Positions 42,633-49,211 are shown, counted from the first letter of the stretch. The stretch is DNA of 50,807 nucleotides from Actinomycetes bacterium (GCA_021795585.1 JAJYPE010000001.1:1-50807), one strand, 5' to 3'. A program made the numbers and translations. The notes: generated from the sequence alone by a model not told the origin.

Positions 42633-43310
42633 ATGGAGCCGCTGATCCTCTATCCTGGGGAGCCACCGTTCCACGTGATCAAAGCCCTCCAGGACGGGGG
42701 GTACCCGTTCGCCGCCGTTTCTTCGATGGTACAGGTCTCCAAAGAGGAGACCGAGGAGGGTTGGTCCGGCGCGATCATCTGTGCCGACTCCAATCTCGAA
42801 GACGCCTTTCTCATATGCAGGCAGCTGCGCTCCAAAGAAAGAAACGTCTCGCCGGTACTCCTGGTGGTGGACAGGCAGAGCCTTGGAAAGCTCGAACTGC
42901 GAGAGGACCTCTTCGACGACTTCGTGACGCTGCCCCTCGACGCCCGGGAACTCGAAGTGCGGCTGCAGCGGCTCTTTTTCCGGAGTGGGCGCGGGCTGGC
43001 GAAGGAGGTCATCGAGTACGGGCCGCTGAGAATCAACCTGGAGACGTACCAGGCCGGCATCGGCGACCGCTCGCTGGATCTGACCTACATGGAATACCAG
43101 CTGCTCACCTTTCTGGCTTCGCATCCCGGCCGGGTCTTCAACCGAGAGACTCTCCTCTCGCGCGTCTGGGGGTACGAATACTACGGAGGTGCCCGTACGG
43201 TGGACGTCCACATCCGGCGTCTGCGAGCAAAGCTCGGTGACCAGCACGAGTCGCTGATCGAGACCGTGAGGAGCGTCGGCTACCGCTTCGGGCGCAACCC
43301 GAGGCATTGA
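42633..43310 (+). CDS. glnR: GlnR-like orphan OmpR-family nitrogen regulator
   Basis: wHTH LDLTYMEYQLL.FLA.HPGRVF.R..LL..VWGYEYYGGARTVDVHIRRLRAKLG..HESLI.TVR.VGYRF; atypical receiver; no kinase nearby; abuts glnA2. Confidence 0.8.
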   Translation: MEPLILYPGEPPFHVIKALQDGGYPFAAVSSMVQVSKEETEEGWSGAIICADSNLEDAFLICRQLRSKERNVSPVLLVVDRQSLGKLELREDLFDDFVTLPLDARELEVRLQRLFFRSGRGLAKEVIEYGPLRINLETYQAGIGDRSLDLTYMEYQLLTFLASHPGRVFNRETLLSRVWGYEYYGGARTVDVHIRRLRAKLGDQHESLIETVRSVGYRFGRNPRH

Positions 43311-43449
43311 GCACGTCACGCCCGCAGCTTCTCCGAGGTTCCGAGCGGATTCGCTGGGTCTAGAACCTTTAATGCCTTTGCACCTGAGGTAACATCAGAC
43401 TTGCACTGGCACCGGCGCGACGAGGCCCAAACCTTGCACTGGAGATCTC

Positions 43450-45567
43450 ATGCCCCCGAATATCGACGCCTCTGAGCTCCTGCGCCAAGGCAAGAGCAGC
43501 AAGCCAAAGCCCAAAATCTCGGCCGGTGGCAAAGGCACACCGGCCCGCTCCGATTCCCTGACCAAAGAACTCGCCGAGCGCTTCGCCAAGGCCAGCAAGA
43601 CCAACCCGTCCACGCTCCCCAAACCGGTCTCGACCGACAAGGGCGGAGCACCTCAGCAAAAGCCCGAAAAGCAATCCTGGCTGCAGAAGCAGAAAGAGAA
43701 GCGCAAGGTCAAGGCGCAGGAGAAAAAGGCGTTCAACGAGAAATACAAGAACGCAAAGGTTCCCGCCTTCCGACAGCAGGTAGCCATGAACGAGGAGGCC
43801 TTCAAACAGGAGGGGGCCGTCGACGCCAAGGCAACGCAGAAGGACACCGACCGCAAGGAGGACGCTCCCTTCGTGAAGAGTGCCACGAGCGCTCAGAAAT
43901 TCAGAGAGAAGGCGTTGAAGTCGAAGGTAGGCGGCACGCAGGGCTTCGACGACAGCAAGTTGACCGGCGCGATAAACCAGAAGATCACCCAGCATGGGCA
44001 CGTCGCACAGACCAGCGAACTCGATGACAACATTGCAAATGTAGGGACGGGCCAAACAGCCTTGACCGGGATAGGCGGGGCCACCACCGTGGGCGGCGGC
44101 ATGGCCAGCGGCCTCGACGCCTTGAAGACCCACGTCGCGCCCTCGATGGCCGTCAACAACCTTGGCGCAGGTATCGCTTCTGACGCGGGATCGCTGGTAT
44201 CACTCGTCTCCGGGATAATGGACATCATTGGCCTTGTTTTCGCCAAGCTCAAGGCCGGGGAGGACGCTTCTTCTGCACAGCAGGAGGACCTGAGCCTCCA
44301 GTTGTCCCAGGCGGTCATGAACACGGCGGCAAGCGGGGGCATCCTTGCCAGGGACATCATGGAGCTGGTCGCGATAGGCCAATCCCTGCCCGCGTCATCC
44401 AGCCTCCTCACCACTGCAATCCCCGGCTTGGGTATCGCCATCAGCGCGACACAGATGGTTTCAACCTCTGTCGACCTGGGCCGGCAGGCAGCGCTGGTCC
44501 ACCGAACCAACTCGAACATGGGCTCTCTGCAGAAGATGGCCAAGGACCCCCAGAACGCAAAACAGATGGGTGACATCTCGGTTCTCAAGGGAGCCATCTC
44601 CAACTTCAAGGGCGGCGCGGTAGGGCTCCTCGTCAGCGACGTAATAAGTGCATTTTCCGGACTCGTTTCACTCATTGGCTCGGCCCTGTCTATGCTGGCG
44701 CCCGGCACGCCCGTGCACGGGGCTGGTGCGGCCCTTGGTGTCGCTTCGAGCGGAATCTCGGCAGCCAAGAGCGTCGCCTTCCAGGTCAAGGGCTGGGTAC
44801 AGGCGAGCCAGGTCCACAAGTACCGCGACAAATACAAGTCCGGCCAAATGATGAGCGATGGCCTCGAAGTATCCGAGATGCTGGTCAAGAAGGACCCGAA
44901 GCACGCGGCCCAAACGCTCTTGAGCTACGCCCGTGGTGAACCCAGGCCGGACGGCACGAAGGTGGACCCGACGCTCCAGGACCATGCCAAGAAGCAACTC
45001 AAGGCGCTCGGTGTCGGTGAAGGCGAGCTGAACAAGCTCACTCCCAGCCAACTCCGCGATTTAATGGTGTCAAGGGTCGGCTATTCGCAGGAGCCCAAGA
45101 CCTTTGTACAGACCTTCAAGGACTTGGGCCGGAAGGTGAGCGACGTCTTCACCCAGAACCCGTTACATTACTCAGGAAAGCGCACGGAAATTAAGAACCT
45201 CGCCGAGGTAAAGAACACCCTCGGCTATGGCGGCGTGAATGACCGGGGGTTCAATTGGATTAACAAGCAAGGGGCCTTCTCGAAGCAGGGCGACATACGG
45301 TCACAGCAGGCTCAGATGAAGTTTCTCGTAGCTCAGTCGCCCTTGAGCGAGCAGGAGAAGGACAGGCTGTTGCAGCTTCTCCCGGGCTACAAACCTCAGG
45401 GCACCACCGGCACGCCCAGTACCGGCACGCCCAGTACCGGCACGCCAACTGCAGGCGGCCAACAAGCCAAGAAGGATCCCAAAGGCAAGAACCAGGAGCA
45501 CATCGGGGAGCTCATGCGGGCGGTGCTCGCAAAGAAGGAGGCCGCTGAAAGCGGTGCCAAAGTCTGA
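43450..45567 (+). CDS. Uncharacterised 705-aa protein; candidate injected effector with pore/translocator-like helices
   Basis: SD GGAG; Lys/Gln-rich N-terminus; Gly/Ala/Ser-rich hydrophobic segments in the middle; no Sec/Tat signal. ORF is solid, function is inferred. Confidence 0.75.
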   Translation: MPPNIDASELLRQGKSSKPKPKISAGGKGTPARSDSLTKELAERFAKASKTNPSTLPKPVSTDKGGAPQQKPEKQSWLQKQKEKRKVKAQEKKAFNEKYKNAKVPAFRQQVAMNEEAFKQEGAVDAKATQKDTDRKEDAPFVKSATSAQKFREKALKSKVGGTQGFDDSKLTGAINQKITQHGHVAQTSELDDNIANVGTGQTALTGIGGATTVGGGMASGLDALKTHVAPSMAVNNLGAGIASDAGSLVSLVSGIMDIIGLVFAKLKAGEDASSAQQEDLSLQLSQAVMNTAASGGILARDIMELVAIGQSLPASSSLLTTAIPGLGIAISATQMVSTSVDLGRQAALVHRTNSNMGSLQKMAKDPQNAKQMGDISVLKGAISNFKGGAVGLLVSDVISAFSGLVSLIGSALSMLAPGTPVHGAGAALGVASSGISAAKSVAFQVKGWVQASQVHKYRDKYKSGQMMSDGLEVSEMLVKKDPKHAAQTLLSYARGEPRPDGTKVDPTLQDHAKKQLKALGVGEGELNKLTPSQLRDLMVSRVGYSQEPKTFVQTFKDLGRKVSDVFTQNPLHYSGKRTEIKNLAEVKNTLGYGGVNDRGFNWINKQGAFSKQGDIRSQQAQMKFLVAQSPLSEQEKDRLLQLLPGYKPQGTTGTPSTGTPSTGTPTAGGQQAKKDPKGKNQEHIGELMRAVLAKKEAAESGAKV
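45406..45450 (+). repeat. 15-bp in-frame tandem repeat, 3 copies (TGTPS TGTPS TGTPT)
   Basis: ACCGGCACGCCCAGT twice, then ACCGGCACGCCAACT. Confidence 0.95.
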
Positions 45568-45620
45568 TCCCAACGCAGGCGTTTCGCACCGTGGACGAGG
45601 TCGCACAGTCATTCGCGTAA

Positions 45621-46112
45621 ATGACTGATACCCTGACACTCCCATCCGTCGCAGCGCGTGAGTACGTGTCCACCTACATCGGCGAATACTCAAGAGACGA
45701 GGGCAAGGGAATATTCTCATGGATCCACCAGGGCGACAGGGTGGCATGGGAAGTCACGCTGAGGGCATTCGACCCTGGGGGGGTGGTCGTTGTCGTATCG
45801 ACCTGCCCCTTCAAGATCGAGATACCCGAACGCGCTCTGGTGAACAAGTTCGTTTCGCTGCTCAACTTCCAGAGCACAGAGGCGGTTTTCGCACTGCAAC
45901 CGGAGCTAGGAGACCTGACTACAAAAACCTCTGCGTTCCTCGGCTCGGAGTTCCTGGCCACCCAGATCGCGCTTCAGGACGCCGTGGGCCTGGTTCGATA
46001 CGCGGTGGATGTCAACCTCGAGTCGGCCGAGGAGGTATTCGGCGCGGCTGCCCGGCTTACCCAGGGCATGTCGACCGTTGACGCCGAGTTGCAAGCGCTG
46101 GAAGGACTCTGA
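45621..46112 (+). CDS. YbjN/type III secretion chaperone-like protein
   Basis: Small and acidic; W.V...VVSTCPF.I...R..V..F...LN......F......GDL..KTS pattern. Confidence 0.7.
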   Translation: MTDTLTLPSVAAREYVSTYIGEYSRDEGKGIFSWIHQGDRVAWEVTLRAFDPGGVVVVVSTCPFKIEIPERALVNKFVSLLNFQSTEAVFALQPELGDLTTKTSAFLGSEFLATQIALQDAVGLVRYAVDVNLESAEEVFGAAARLTQGMSTVDAELQALEGL

Positions 46113-46199
46113 GCCTCGTCGGATTGCCGGCGACAATCCGTACCTGGTATCCCTTTGAGGGCTACGCTTAGCCTGTTCTCCCTTATGAAAGGACGCTTC

Positions 46200-46697
46200 T
46201 TGCCCGGCACCAGCAGCAAGACCCTCTTGAACTTGACCGAGGAGGTTCTGAAGGACAGCCAGTTCGAGTACGAGCGAATTTCCGATACCGACGCCTACTC
46301 CATCGATTACAGCTTCGATGACGTGAGTTGGATGATCTTCGTCCAGGTGGTCGAAAATCTCGGCCTGGTGATTGCCTACTCGAGCTGCCCGTTCTCGATA
46401 GAGCAGGAGTACCACTCCCAGGTCATGGAGTTCTCGTCGCGCCTGAACTACGTTCTCTTCGAGGGTGGTTTCGAGATGGACACTGCTGACGGTGACCTTC
46501 GCTTCAAGACCTCCGCCTTCGTAGGCTCGGAAGCCTCGCCCACCACCCTGTCCGAGGAGGACATCAAGGCGCTGATCCAGCACACTGTCTTCTCCAACAT
46601 TTTCGTGGCGACGATTTCATTCCCGTCCGTCGCCAAGATCGTGCGAGGGATAATCTCGGTCGACGAGGCCGTGGTCGCCTCGTCCGACCTGGGCTAG
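46200..46697 (+). CDS. YbjN/type III secretion chaperone-like protein (paralogue)
   Basis: YSSCPFSI......VMEF.SRLNY.L.EGGFEMD..DGDLRFKTS; start set at TTG 46200 after GAAAGGA. Confidence 0.8.
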   Translation: MPGTSSKTLLNLTEEVLKDSQFEYERISDTDAYSIDYSFDDVSWMIFVQVVENLGLVIAYSSCPFSIEQEYHSQVMEFSSRLNYVLFEGGFEMDTADGDLRFKTSAFVGSEASPTTLSEEDIKALIQHTVFSNIFVATISFPSVAKIVRGIISVDEAVVASSDLG

Positions 46698-46746
46698 GCG
46701 AATCTCGGGCGAAAATGTCGGACGCCGGGATCATACTCACTTCGTA

Positions 46747-48732
46747 ATGACCGACCCCAACACGCCTTTCGACTCACAACTCCTGTTGCGCGCCGGTCTA
46801 TTGGCCCGGAGCCGGCAGATGGCATCCGTAGGTGAGAACGGATCTGAGGCTCTGGATAGCTTCGTGGCCATCCTCACCGCCGCTATCGGCCTGGAAGAGC
46901 CGGAATTGATCGCGCCGGCGCTCGCCCAAGCCGAAGTGAAGATGGGTGCGGCGGGCCTGACAGCCCCGATCGACCGGATCTCCTATTTTGCCGGCCTCAG
47001 CCAAGCAGAGCGTGACCTCGTGACCGTTCTGGCCGCGATGCGTGTCGCGCGCGACAGGGGTTACCCCGTCCTGCAGGGCGAGAACGGCGCAGTAGGCATC
47101 GAGTTCGCGCAAGTGGTAGTCGGCTTGCGCAGTGGCGTCGAATCGATTTTCGACGCCGAAGGTGCGCTTTATGACTACGGAGTAGTCGCAAGGCATGGTG
47201 GGCCGGGCCGGGCCGATTCCTTCGTTCAATTGCGAACCCACGCCCTCGCCCAGCTCCGCGGAATCCGCGCGTGCAGTCCGGAACTCGAGGACGCCGAATC
47301 CGCGCTTCCAGATGCGCTCCCATTCGGCCTAGATCTCCCGCCCGCGCTCACGCGGTCGGACTTCCTGTACGTGCGCGGCACCACGGCAGGGCTTGCGCTG
47401 TACCGCATTGCCCAGCTATTGGAATCCGGCGGGCGTAGTGACGCTCGCTGGCTCGACCTGCGCAAGGCAGGCGAGGAAGACGATGCCGCCAGGCGGCTGC
47501 GCATCGCCTGCCTGGACGCATTCGTCAACGGCACCACCTTGGTCGTGGGCCCCATCACCCAACTCGCAGAATCCTCACCGCTACTATTGCGCGGCCTGCA
47601 GGATCCACGGGCCAGCGTCGCGATCTTCGGAACGGTTCCCTGGGAGCATGCCTACCTCGGGTTCGACCCCTACTGCTGGGAAGCTCCACGCCTGGATGAG
47701 GCCGAAGCGGCGATGCTATGGGAGGGGGCTCTGGGAGAGCGTGCAGGCGAAGAAGTTATTGCGGGACTTCGCCATTTGCCCCTCCAGCCCGAGCAGATAC
47801 GAGAATCGGCACGGGTGATCGATCTCGAGACCGGAGAGCGCGAAGGCGGGGTCGAGACCGGCGAAATAATCGGGGCTATCCGGAGTGTGAGCTTCGAGCG
47901 CCTGGGAACCCTGGCTCGGCGCGTTAGCCCCAAAGTGTCATGGGAAGACCTCCTTCTCCCGGACAACGTCACGCGCCAGCTTCGTTGGATGTGCGATCGT
48001 TACCGCCACCGCCATCTCGTGGCCCGAGAATGGCGACTCAAGCCGGGAGGTGGCCGCGGAGTAGGCGTGTCGGCACTTTTCACCGGTGATTCCGGCACCG
48101 GCAAGACTCTGGCAGCCGAGGTCGCCGCTGCGGAGCTTGGCCTGGAGATGCTGGTAGTAGACCTCTCCTCCTTAGTGGACAAGTACGTAGGCGAGACCGA
48201 AAAGAACCTCGAGAGGGTCTTCTCCGTGGTCGAAAACGCGCCTGGGCTCCTCTTTTTCGACGAAGCCGACGCCGTGTTCGGCAAGCGCTCGGAGGTCAAG
48301 GAATCCAACGACCGCTTCGCCAACGTCCAAGTCTCCTACCTGCTGCAGCGGCTTGAGGCATTCAACGGCTTGGCAATACTCTCGTCCAACCTCAAGGCCA
48401 ATATCGACCAGGCATTCATGCGCAGACTGGACCTCGCCATCGACTTCCCGATGCCCGACATCGAGATGCGGGCGCGACTTTGGCGGGAGTTCCTCAGATC
48501 CGTGCCGATCGAGGACGACATCGAGTGGGACTTTCTGGCCTCAAACTTCGAGATGCCGGGCGGCAATATCAGGGCTGCCACCTTGAGCGCCGCCTACCTG
48601 GCGGCGGCCGAGTCGCGCAAGGTTGGTATGCGCGACCTGATGGTCGGCCTGGTACTCGAATACCGCAAGCTTGGCCACCTCTTGAGCGAATCCGAGTTTG
48701 CGCACTGGAGCGCCTTGGTCAAGTGGGTCTGA
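46747..48732 (+). CDS. AAA+ ATPase of the eCIS-associated (Afp15/Pvc15-like) type
   Basis: WEDLLLP, ALFTGDSGTGKTLAAEV.A.ELG, DLSSLVDKYVGETEKNL.RVF, LFFDEADAVFGKRSEVKESNDRFAN..VSYLLQRLE, IDQAFMRRL, EYRKLG; degenerate first AAA domain. Confidence 0.88.
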   Translation: MTDPNTPFDSQLLLRAGLLARSRQMASVGENGSEALDSFVAILTAAIGLEEPELIAPALAQAEVKMGAAGLTAPIDRISYFAGLSQAERDLVTVLAAMRVARDRGYPVLQGENGAVGIEFAQVVVGLRSGVESIFDAEGALYDYGVVARHGGPGRADSFVQLRTHALAQLRGIRACSPELEDAESALPDALPFGLDLPPALTRSDFLYVRGTTAGLALYRIAQLLESGGRSDARWLDLRKAGEEDDAARRLRIACLDAFVNGTTLVVGPITQLAESSPLLLRGLQDPRASVAIFGTVPWEHAYLGFDPYCWEAPRLDEAEAAMLWEGALGERAGEEVIAGLRHLPLQPEQIRESARVIDLETGEREGGVETGEIIGAIRSVSFERLGTLARRVSPKVSWEDLLLPDNVTRQLRWMCDRYRHRHLVAREWRLKPGGGRGVGVSALFTGDSGTGKTLAAEVAAAELGLEMLVVDLSSLVDKYVGETEKNLERVFSVVENAPGLLFFDEADAVFGKRSEVKESNDRFANVQVSYLLQRLEAFNGLAILSSNLKANIDQAFMRRLDLAIDFPMPDIEMRARLWREFLRSVPIEDDIEWDFLASNFEMPGGNIRAATLSAAYLAAAESRKVGMRDLMVGLVLEYRKLGHLLSESEFAHWSALVKWV

Positions 48733-48770: not shown

Positions 48771-48799
48771 AAAAGGGCGGCCCCACAGGGCCGCCCTTT
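48771..48799. terminator. Bidirectional intrinsic terminator between the ATPase and iscA/erpA
   Basis: AAAAGGGCGGCCC-CACA-GGGCCGCCCTTT. Confidence 0.85.
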
Positions 48800-48833: not shown

Positions 48834-49211
48834 TCAGGAGAACGAAGAGCCACACCCGCAGGTGCGAGTGGCGTTGGGGTTTGAGATGTGGAAGCCCGCG
48901 CCCTGAAGACCATCACGGTAGTCAAGGGTGGCACCCTTGAGATGCTCCAGCGAGCTGGCGTCGACAACCACCTTGAAGGTGCCCTTGTCGCCGACGACAT
49001 CGCTGACGATGTCGTCATCGGCTATCTCGGAATCGAAGAACATGTCATAGGAAAAGCCCGAACAGCCGCCCGGCTTCACCGCCACGCGCAGGAAAAGGGC
49101 ATCGGTTCCGCCCTCCTCTGACAGCAGCTCCGCCACCTTCGACGCTGCCGGGGGCGTGACGATGATCGCGGTCGGCTTCTTTCCGATCTTGATTGCGGTA
49201 CCAACAGACAA
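48834..49211 (-). CDS. A-type Fe-S carrier (HesB/IscA/ErpA family)
   Basis: LRVAVKPGGCSGFSY, NPNATRTCGCGSSF. Confidence 0.95.
   Translation of the reverse strand: MSVGTAIKIGKKPTAIIVTPPAASKVAELLSEEGGTDALFLRVAVKPGGCSGFSYDMFFDSEIADDDIVSDVVGDKGTFKVVVDASSLEHLKGATLDYRDGLQGAGFHISNPNATRTCGCGSSFS

Follow-up and report, generated by a model that had tools for sequence, protein, structure and literature searches.

Contractile injection systems (CISs), the ATPases that load them and helper proteins encoded beside their cargo are already known, the helpers including Sle2 (PMC13277306) and Tme (PMC11126660). The CIS of Streptomyces coelicolor is cytoplasmic and requires CisA for firing (PMC12237407), whilst its ATPase is needed for function but not for the shape of the particle (PMC10020575). 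Loading has been reported to require a disordered leader on the cargo, with the DUF4157 domain being optional (bioRxiv 10.64898/2026.05.27.728243), and DUF4157 has itself been proposed to act as a chaperone (PMC11297309). Most CIS toxins are described as lacking immunity genes (PMC8213781), and the YbjN family of small proteins has been called understudied (PMC13466201). The present analysis concerns a cassette of four genes at positions 43450 to 48732 of a stretch of 50,807 nucleotides from an Actinomycetes bacterium (GCA_021795585.1 JAJYPE010000001.1:1-50807; hereafter, the window), which encodes a predicted CIS cargo, two YbjN-like proteins and an AAA+ ATPase, in this order. The new element of this locus is the link between YbjN proteins and cargo.

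A split contractile injection locus

The CIS locus is split, as seen from the CIS genes located on three other contigs of the same genome and from the complete operon of a relative, which is devoid of an ATPase gene, and the cassette is in all probability a detached portion of it that loads the cargo. The last gene of the cassette (46747-48732, + strand) encodes a 661-amino-acid ATPase of the Afp15/Pvc15 type, in which the D1 domain is degenerate and D2, the C-terminal AAA domain, is intact, with Walker A, Walker B and a KY pore loop. Its motifs are GDSGTGKT (at 447), KYVGETEKNL (at 479), FFDEAD and RFANVQVSYLLQR. The single Walker A and degenerate middle domain bear out the initial annotation, made from the sequence alone, which had described a dead first AAA domain in an ATPase of the kind that loads extracellular CISs (eCISs). 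The second part of that description is supported, as far as a CIS type is concerned, by locus context, a tree and a motif alignment with related ATPases. Among the 80 best ATPase loci, obtained by scanning 14 of the 64 parts of the GTDB genome set, CIS genes are found within 10 kb at 77; of the remaining three, one is another copy of the present cassette and the other two are contigs 1.6 and 4.2 kb long. A 39-row tree, built from 27 of the 80 loci, nine sequences from the window and its relatives, and three outgroups from its own genome, places the window ATPase inside a 36-row clade of CIS ATPases, and not outside it, with support of 100/99; the outgroups are very distant and the deeper branching order is without resolution. 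A PDB sequence search with the ATPase matched only p97/Cdc48. The N-terminal region of the protein, with a ratio of nonsynonymous to synonymous substitution rates (dN/dS) of 0.18, aligns with that of its relatives but has lost the DDxFRGLY and LNDDxxRR motifs, and no match to PF22977 (N-terminal winged helix) was obtained, although the ATPases of genomes G001 and G492 do match this family. On these sequence features, the window protein is a CIS-type (Afp15/Pvc15/Sco4259) ATPase with a remodelled N-terminal domain.

The structural genes are located elsewhere in the genome, as the initial annotation had proposed that they might be. The assembly (G000) spans 2.28 Mb in 315 contigs and is 89% complete. 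Contig C192 carries Pvc16 and C81 carries a sheath, a tube and a DUF4157 protein, both being cut at the contig end, whilst C224 carries a gene for a CisA-like membrane protein together with PAAR; all three contigs end inside the structural operon. Searches of the window's own contig for sheath, tube, baseplate, spike, gp25 and Pvc16 gave no match, in agreement with the absence of structural genes first noted for the window. In G010 (contig C130) and G001 (C33) the structural operon is complete, and the stretches examined there contain no ATPase. In its own assembly the window ATPase has no counterpart of CIS type, the next best match having an E-value of 2e-11, and across the genus an ATPase (E <= 1e-40) and a sheath occur in the same five of 12 genomes. 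Because it is the sole loading ATPase in the assembly, the cassette is a detached part of this CIS and not, as initially proposed, a stand-alone module with an ATPase of its own. The unknown export route put forward as another outlet for the cargo was likewise rejected, since a CIS is encoded in the same genome.

The product of the gene behind Tail_P2_I/baseplate combines a zinc ribbon and a Pro-rich linker with a single hydrophobic helix (Kyte-Doolittle peak 1.7-2.2) and a PF25302 domain; in all five Streptomyces genomes tested, it is matched by the gene at the equivalent position. By position, build and these sequence matches the protein resembles CisA. As the machine carries such a membrane protein, it is likely to be a cytoplasmic CIS of the Streptomyces type; that is, the particle is probably membrane-docked and CisA-type rather than released as an extracellular particle, the form initially assumed.

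Two further observations concern the location of these genes. The structural operon begins directly behind the core genes rplM-rpsI-glmM in G000:C192, G010:C130, G011:C12 and G006:C538, and is sited elsewhere in G001. On contig C269 of G000 (L185:5413-11626), the genes for a giant repeat protein rich in Gly/Ser and for a single-pass protein of Ig-like type are orthologous to the two preceding the CIS ATPase in G001:C90; in G000 they are followed by a glmS-like gene, with no ATPase, and this may be an earlier home of the ATPase.

The cargo protein

The first gene of the cassette (43450-45567, + strand) encodes a protein of 705 amino acids that has no Pfam or NCBIfam match and is likely, from sequence comparison, to be a cargo-type member of a new helical family. 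Its cargo-type assignment, which upholds the earlier view of an effector candidate, derives from the DUF4157 or LQRxxGNxAV leaders carried by distant homologues. Relatives are few, with three found in one search, five among 1.84 billion representatives and six in a profile search. In homologue P0010, DUF4157 lies ahead of the shared domain (hhalign probability 99.5; PF13699, E 1.7e-30), and a leader of the LQRxxGNxAV type is present on homologues P0006 (record L125), L124, P0015 and P0016. This motif, for which a published name was not found, is common in the open reading frames (ORFs) at the 80 CIS loci. Three genes of G492:C144, two with DUF4157, match the C-terminal part of the cargo weakly (E 4e-7 to 0.007 among 8440 ORFs). 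These are paralogous cargo genes (L156:3641-13565), with a YbjN gene after the first and a divergent CIS ATPase.

The N-terminus of the 705-residue protein (residues about 1-70) is of low complexity, rich in K/S/P/G and followed by K-rich helices, which is consistent with the required disordered leader, DUF4157 being optional. Residues from about 200 to 460 comprise long, apolar Gly/Ala/Ser-rich helices with hydropathy peaks of 1.5-2.0, and the C-terminal region is conserved and contains DPKH and YGGxxDRG motifs. AlphaFold2 (AF2) models are all-helical and of low confidence, with a pLDDT confidence score of 44 for the whole protein and 56 for the core; the K/S/P/G-rich residues 1-78 score under 50, a weak sign given the poor model as a whole. 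Helix composition, together with a weak lead to an RTX family, puts the chance that the cargo acts on membranes at about even. A short tandem repeat of TGTPS units is located near the C-terminus (45400-45455), and its copy number varies among close cargo homologues.

YbjN proteins behind cargo-type genes

Between the cargo and ATPase genes lie two genes that were initially annotated as encoding proteins resembling type III secretion system (T3SS) chaperones. The description is sound for the third gene of the cassette, which encodes YbjN-like protein 2 (180 or 170 amino acids; 46155/46185-46697, + strand, with an uncertain start at 46155, 46185 or 46197) and exceeds the PF10722 cut-off (29.5 vs 22 bits). 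The second gene (45621-46112, + strand), encoding the 163-residue YbjN-like protein 1, has no Pfam match of its own and is linked to the family through protein 2, with which it shares 33% identity (E 6e-17). The two proteins form one clade with support of 98/98, and on this phylogeny protein 1 is a divergent local duplicate of protein 2. In G005, the gene directly behind that for the cargo encodes an orthologue of protein 2. Neither the YbjN nor the cargo profile gave anything useful in PDB sequence searches.

Genes of this YbjN type were surveyed with the window proteins and two profiles over sets of 41, 301, 351 and 49 genomes, plus record L125; outside Actinomycetota, coverage extended to only a few genomes among the 49. 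When housekeeping and other such YbjN genes are left out, 24 distinct genes were found, 16 of which are located directly behind a cargo-type gene or second in a tandem. These are distributed as two each in G000, G010, G011, G017 and G320, and one each in G005, G001, G124, G289, G492 and L125, the last following directly on a distant homologue of the present cargo (about 26% identity). As seven of the 16 are copies of the present cassette and those of G124 and G289 are orthologous, about nine cases of adjacency are independent. Five of the 12 YbjN matches that took no part in profile building lie directly behind a PF13699 gene, and since genomes hold merely 0-5 PF13699 genes, adjacency by chance is negligible. 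The cargoes that precede YbjN genes have at least five unrelated C-terminal parts: the helical family, a papain-like type, a family shared by G017, G320, G124 and G289, a second protein in G017 and one in G320, which we take, from its motifs, to be kinase-like. For G001, the gene is called cargo solely on its place behind the ATPase and on a His/Cys pattern of papain-like type (PF05903, E 0.046). The recurrence of related small proteins behind unrelated cargo-type genes suggests, at the level of sequence, an undescribed class of cargo chaperones.

In the class sample, Fisher's test of the YbjN-type gene against the sheath compared 7/9 with 9/292 genomes; without the two genomes that contributed to the profiles, 5/7 remain (p 2e-6), a result not counted as strong because four of those five genomes share one family. 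In 23 selected genomes, the majority of which bear a CIS, PF10722 gave 33 matches, 21 of them new; the new matches comprise housekeeping genes (located behind mfd or close to mshA), a further two with no cargo gene adjacent and one that is probably a false frame. The YbjN-cargo link is of limited phylogenetic range: it is confined to certain lineages, and YbjN is no general CIS part.

Several YbjN loci merit separate description. The complete genome G017 (contig C1; L114, L116, L117) contains a CIS operon and two distant cargo-YbjN pairs; a search of it with the window ATPase gave no match at E <= 1e-40. In G124:C1 and G289:C1 (L141:9490-10461 and L142:7060-8022), YbjN is fused behind an unannotated domain of ~170 amino acids, and the fusion genes lie directly after a DUF4157 cargo gene. 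A single run in G688:C5 (L197:6321-10763) contains a gene for an LQRxxGNxAV protein with an HExxH domain, then small genes, a further gene labelled by eye as methyltransferase-like/TPR-like, and YbjN. The window's genome also has a second, housekeeping YbjN-like gene (G000:C264:5231-5809), which lies behind mfd and is conserved in the genus, and other Acidimicrobiia have a third YbjN type near mshA and proC.

A proposed loading pathway

In the proposed pathway, the YbjN pair would bind the cargo of 705 residues so that it stays soluble and harmless, after which the AAA+ ATPase would thread the cargo by its disordered N-terminus into the tube. The loaded particle would dock on the cell's own membrane through the CisA-like protein and discharge a helical cargo with a predicted action on membranes; its target may be either a touching cell or the membrane of the producer itself. 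Loading that depends on the ATPase and proceeds by way of a disordered N-terminus is likely by analogy with Alg15 and Pvc15, and CisA-dependent firing is likely by analogy with S. coelicolor. That the cassette serves a CIS at all is highly probable. The binding of cargo by the YbjN proteins as chaperones, judged from sequence relationships, is favoured by a small measure, and the complete sequence of events, from a YbjN pair that holds the cargo through an ATPase that loads it to a CisA-docked particle that fires, is considered slightly better than an even proposition. A more elaborate version is tentative and has the odds against it: that YbjN proteins are dedicated CIS cargo chaperones, YbjN1 and YbjN2 forming a heterodimer that replaces the DUF4157 leader and hands a new pore-forming helical effector to the remodelled ATPase, to be fired outward from a membrane-docked particle. 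Tandem YbjN paralogues recall heterodimeric chaperones such as SycN-YscB.

A number of observations weigh against this pathway. Seven of the 24 YbjN genes lack a cargo neighbour (G044, G050, G053, G251, G344, G358 and G400), and one, in G688, is ambiguous, being the final gene of a run in one orientation, the first gene of which is an LQRxxGNxAV gene at a distance of about three genes. No YbjN gene lies within 10 kb at any of the 79 other ATPase loci, and only one of the 49 genomes with a CIS ATPase has a YbjN gene of this type. G021, G032 and G036, three CIS-bearing genomes belonging to the same family, gave no PF10722 match. The cargo-linked YbjN proteins do not form one clade, requiring five changes on the tree, and the cargo homologue in L124 is without an adjacent YbjN gene. 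In addition, the YbjN fold alone does not imply a role in secretion (PMC5398634, PMC13466201). DUF4157 and the LQR motif are both absent from the window cargo, and neither fold nor family connects this protein with a pore-forming toxin: a Foldseek search with its models returned no match at E <= 0.001, VIA-align found generic bundles of four to six helices (best Z about 12), ClyA and PaxB ranking much lower (Z about 8), and the likeness to an RTX N-terminal family in the ESM Atlas (0.84-0.86) is a lead only. Finally, the 89%-complete G000 assembly yielded no second tube, LysM, spike, gp25 or baseplate, and G005 has the cargo and YbjN genes but no sheath or tube match, at 65% completeness.

Alternative explanations

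A first alternative is that the YbjN proteins are immunity proteins (antitoxins), which would block the active part of the cargo in the producer or its kin and have no role in loading. A toxin gene followed by a small gene is the usual order of a toxin-immunity pair, and the YbjN sequences are diverse. Tandem duplication, as seen for the two YbjN genes here, is common among immunity genes. CIS toxin-immunity pairs do exist (PMC8213781). Against this, a single fold stands behind at least five unrelated C-termini, which is easier to reconcile with a chaperone than with a blocker of active sites, and the homologous cargo in L124 has no YbjN gene beside it. Because one fold serves unrelated cargo C-termini, the chaperone role is favoured and immunity is regarded as unlikely.

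Under a second model, YbjN proteins would be substrate adaptors of the AAA+ ATPase, replacing either the cargo leader or the motifs lost from the ATPase N-domain. In the window, the ATPase is devoid of DDxFRGLY, LNDDxxRR and a PF22977 match and the cargo is devoid of DUF4157 and the LQR motif; moreover, ATPase and YbjN genes are close together in G000, G001, G320 and G492. Against this, the stretches read around the cargo-YbjN pairs of G017, G124, G289, G320:C26 and L125 are free of ATPase genes, and DUF4157 or the LQR motif is retained by most of the cargoes concerned; an adaptor role is considered improbable.

A third possibility concerns the 705-residue protein, which might be a non-toxic CIS cargo, either a translocator or a modulator of the producer's own membrane resembling Sle1 or Tme. 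Sle1, an actinobacterial CIS cargo, merely slows growth and reaches the membranes of its producer (PMC13277306). The present CIS is of the CisA type and the cassette directly follows glnA-glnR, the terminator scan having listed nothing in between, both of which would fit such a modulator. However, in relatives the slot before YbjN is filled by enzyme-like domains of toxin type, and a modulator is considered decidedly improbable. The last alternative, that the cassette works apart from a CIS, for example as an anti-phage ATPase system or in another export route, has only a very slight probability: among NCBIfam models the ATPase matches that of the anti-phage protein IteA best, the cassette and the structural genes are not linked, and baseplate and spike were not found in the G000 assembly, but the IteA identity was rejected at 100 bits against a cut-off of 510, the context, tree and co-occurrence of the ATPase all indicate a CIS, and the structural contigs end inside genes, as expected of assembly gaps.

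Genomic site and conservation of the cassette

All four cassette ORFs have the same orientation and lie, at the positions first annotated, between two core genes: to the left a GlnR-like regulator (42633-43310, + strand), which is located behind glnA and ends 139 bp before the cargo gene, and to the right iscA/erpA (48834-49211, - strand; NF010147 and PF01521), which is convergent with the cassette. Compared with G010, the four genes are under purifying selection, with dN/dS values of 0.142, 0.141, 0.117 and 0.094 against 0.03-0.06 for the flanking core genes, and the guanine-plus-cytosine content of the cassette is near that of its flanks. The order of cargo, two YbjN and ATPase genes, the recurrence of which had been proposed as a check, does recur within the genus. 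Gene order and site are identical in G010 and, judged by match coordinates, in G011; record L005 shows the same cassette and was left out of the counts as a separate case. Two partial versions are also present: G005 has a cargo gene (44% identity) followed by one YbjN2-like gene and the contig end, and in G006 an ATPase (63% identity) adjoins iscA on a contig that begins within the ATPase gene. The cassette is absent from all five other members of the genus checked (G001-G004 and G008), in which glnR faces iscA directly.

The cassette was initially thought to end with a bidirectional terminator. A 12-bp hairpin is present between the ATPase gene and iscA (48772-48799; fold z -2.74), has a long T run on the iscA strand only and is absent from the terminator scan listing. 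A similar hairpin lies between glnR and iscA in G003 and G004, both of which are without the cassette. Because this counterpart occurs at the empty site, the hairpin is the ancestral terminator of the glnR/iscA core genes, predating the cassette, and its candidacy as a cassette component was ruled out. The terminator scan also listed no terminator in the gap between glnR and the cargo gene (43310-43450), and transcription of the cassette may continue from glnA-glnR or be governed by this gap. Within it, CCTGAGGTAACATC and CTTGCACTGGAG are conserved in G010.

Relation to known systems

No literature was found that links YbjN to contractile injection or describes a contractile injection system in Acidimicrobiia, subscription journals lying outside these searches. 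Searches for eCIS effectors with CesT returned only papers that are unrelated by title and abstract, and those for orphan eCIS effectors with DUF4157 only other systems. The term 'YbjN' is absent from the main text of PMC8213781 and PMC11297309, the supplements of which could list PF10722. The gene set would make two questions testable, namely how CIS producers hold toxic cargo safely before loading and what YbjN proteins do. Cargo-YbjN pairs may also serve as a marker for CIS effectors encoded far from CIS operons, which surveys centred on operons miss, and CisA-type injection machines are extended to Acidimicrobiia of mine drainage. If the proposed role is correct, YbjN, which of all branches of the type III chaperone clan has the widest distribution and is the least understood, would in these actinobacteria escort unrelated toxins to a loading ATPase.

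The closest described machine is CIS-Sc of S. coelicolor (subtype IId, SCO4242-4260; PMC12237407, PMC10020575), with which the full operons of G010 and G001 share the Pvc16 cap, sheath, tubes, LysM, spike, gp25, baseplate and Tail_P2_I, as well as a single-pass membrane protein in the CisA position; of these, the assembly of G000 shows the cap, sheath, tube and membrane protein, and it shares an AAA+ ATPase with CIS-Sc. In contrast to CIS-Sc, the ATPase gene has moved out of the structural operon to glnR, where it is accompanied by a cargo gene and two YbjN genes; the CisA-like gene is followed by one resembling PAAR, and the host is a bacterium of the class Acidimicrobiia from mine drainage. 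The ATPase resembles Pvc15 and Alg15 (PMC11495950; bioRxiv 10.64898/2026.05.27.728243) in its dead D1, active D2 and KY pore loop, and the cargo resembles theirs in its predicted disordered N-terminus and in that DUF4157 is optional. In the portions of these two reports drawn on here, no separate chaperone is described for the Pvc15 and Alg15 systems and the ATPase itself stabilizes the cargo; their particles are released and bear tail fibres, unlike the CIS predicted here. Likened by description, the Sle1-Sle2 pair of Streptomyces lividans (PMC13277306) also comprises a helical, membrane-seeking cargo without DUF4157 and a small partner encoded adjacent to it. There, however, the stabilizing partner is a DUF4157 protein and not YbjN, and the pair is located inside the CIS cluster. 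As with YbjN (PF10722) and the class I type III chaperones (PMC13466201, PMC5398634, PMC3575483), and with TY-Chap (PMC9503650), a small protein is encoded beside its presumed client; unlike the class I chaperones, the presumed client is a CIS cargo and the host a monoderm bacterium.

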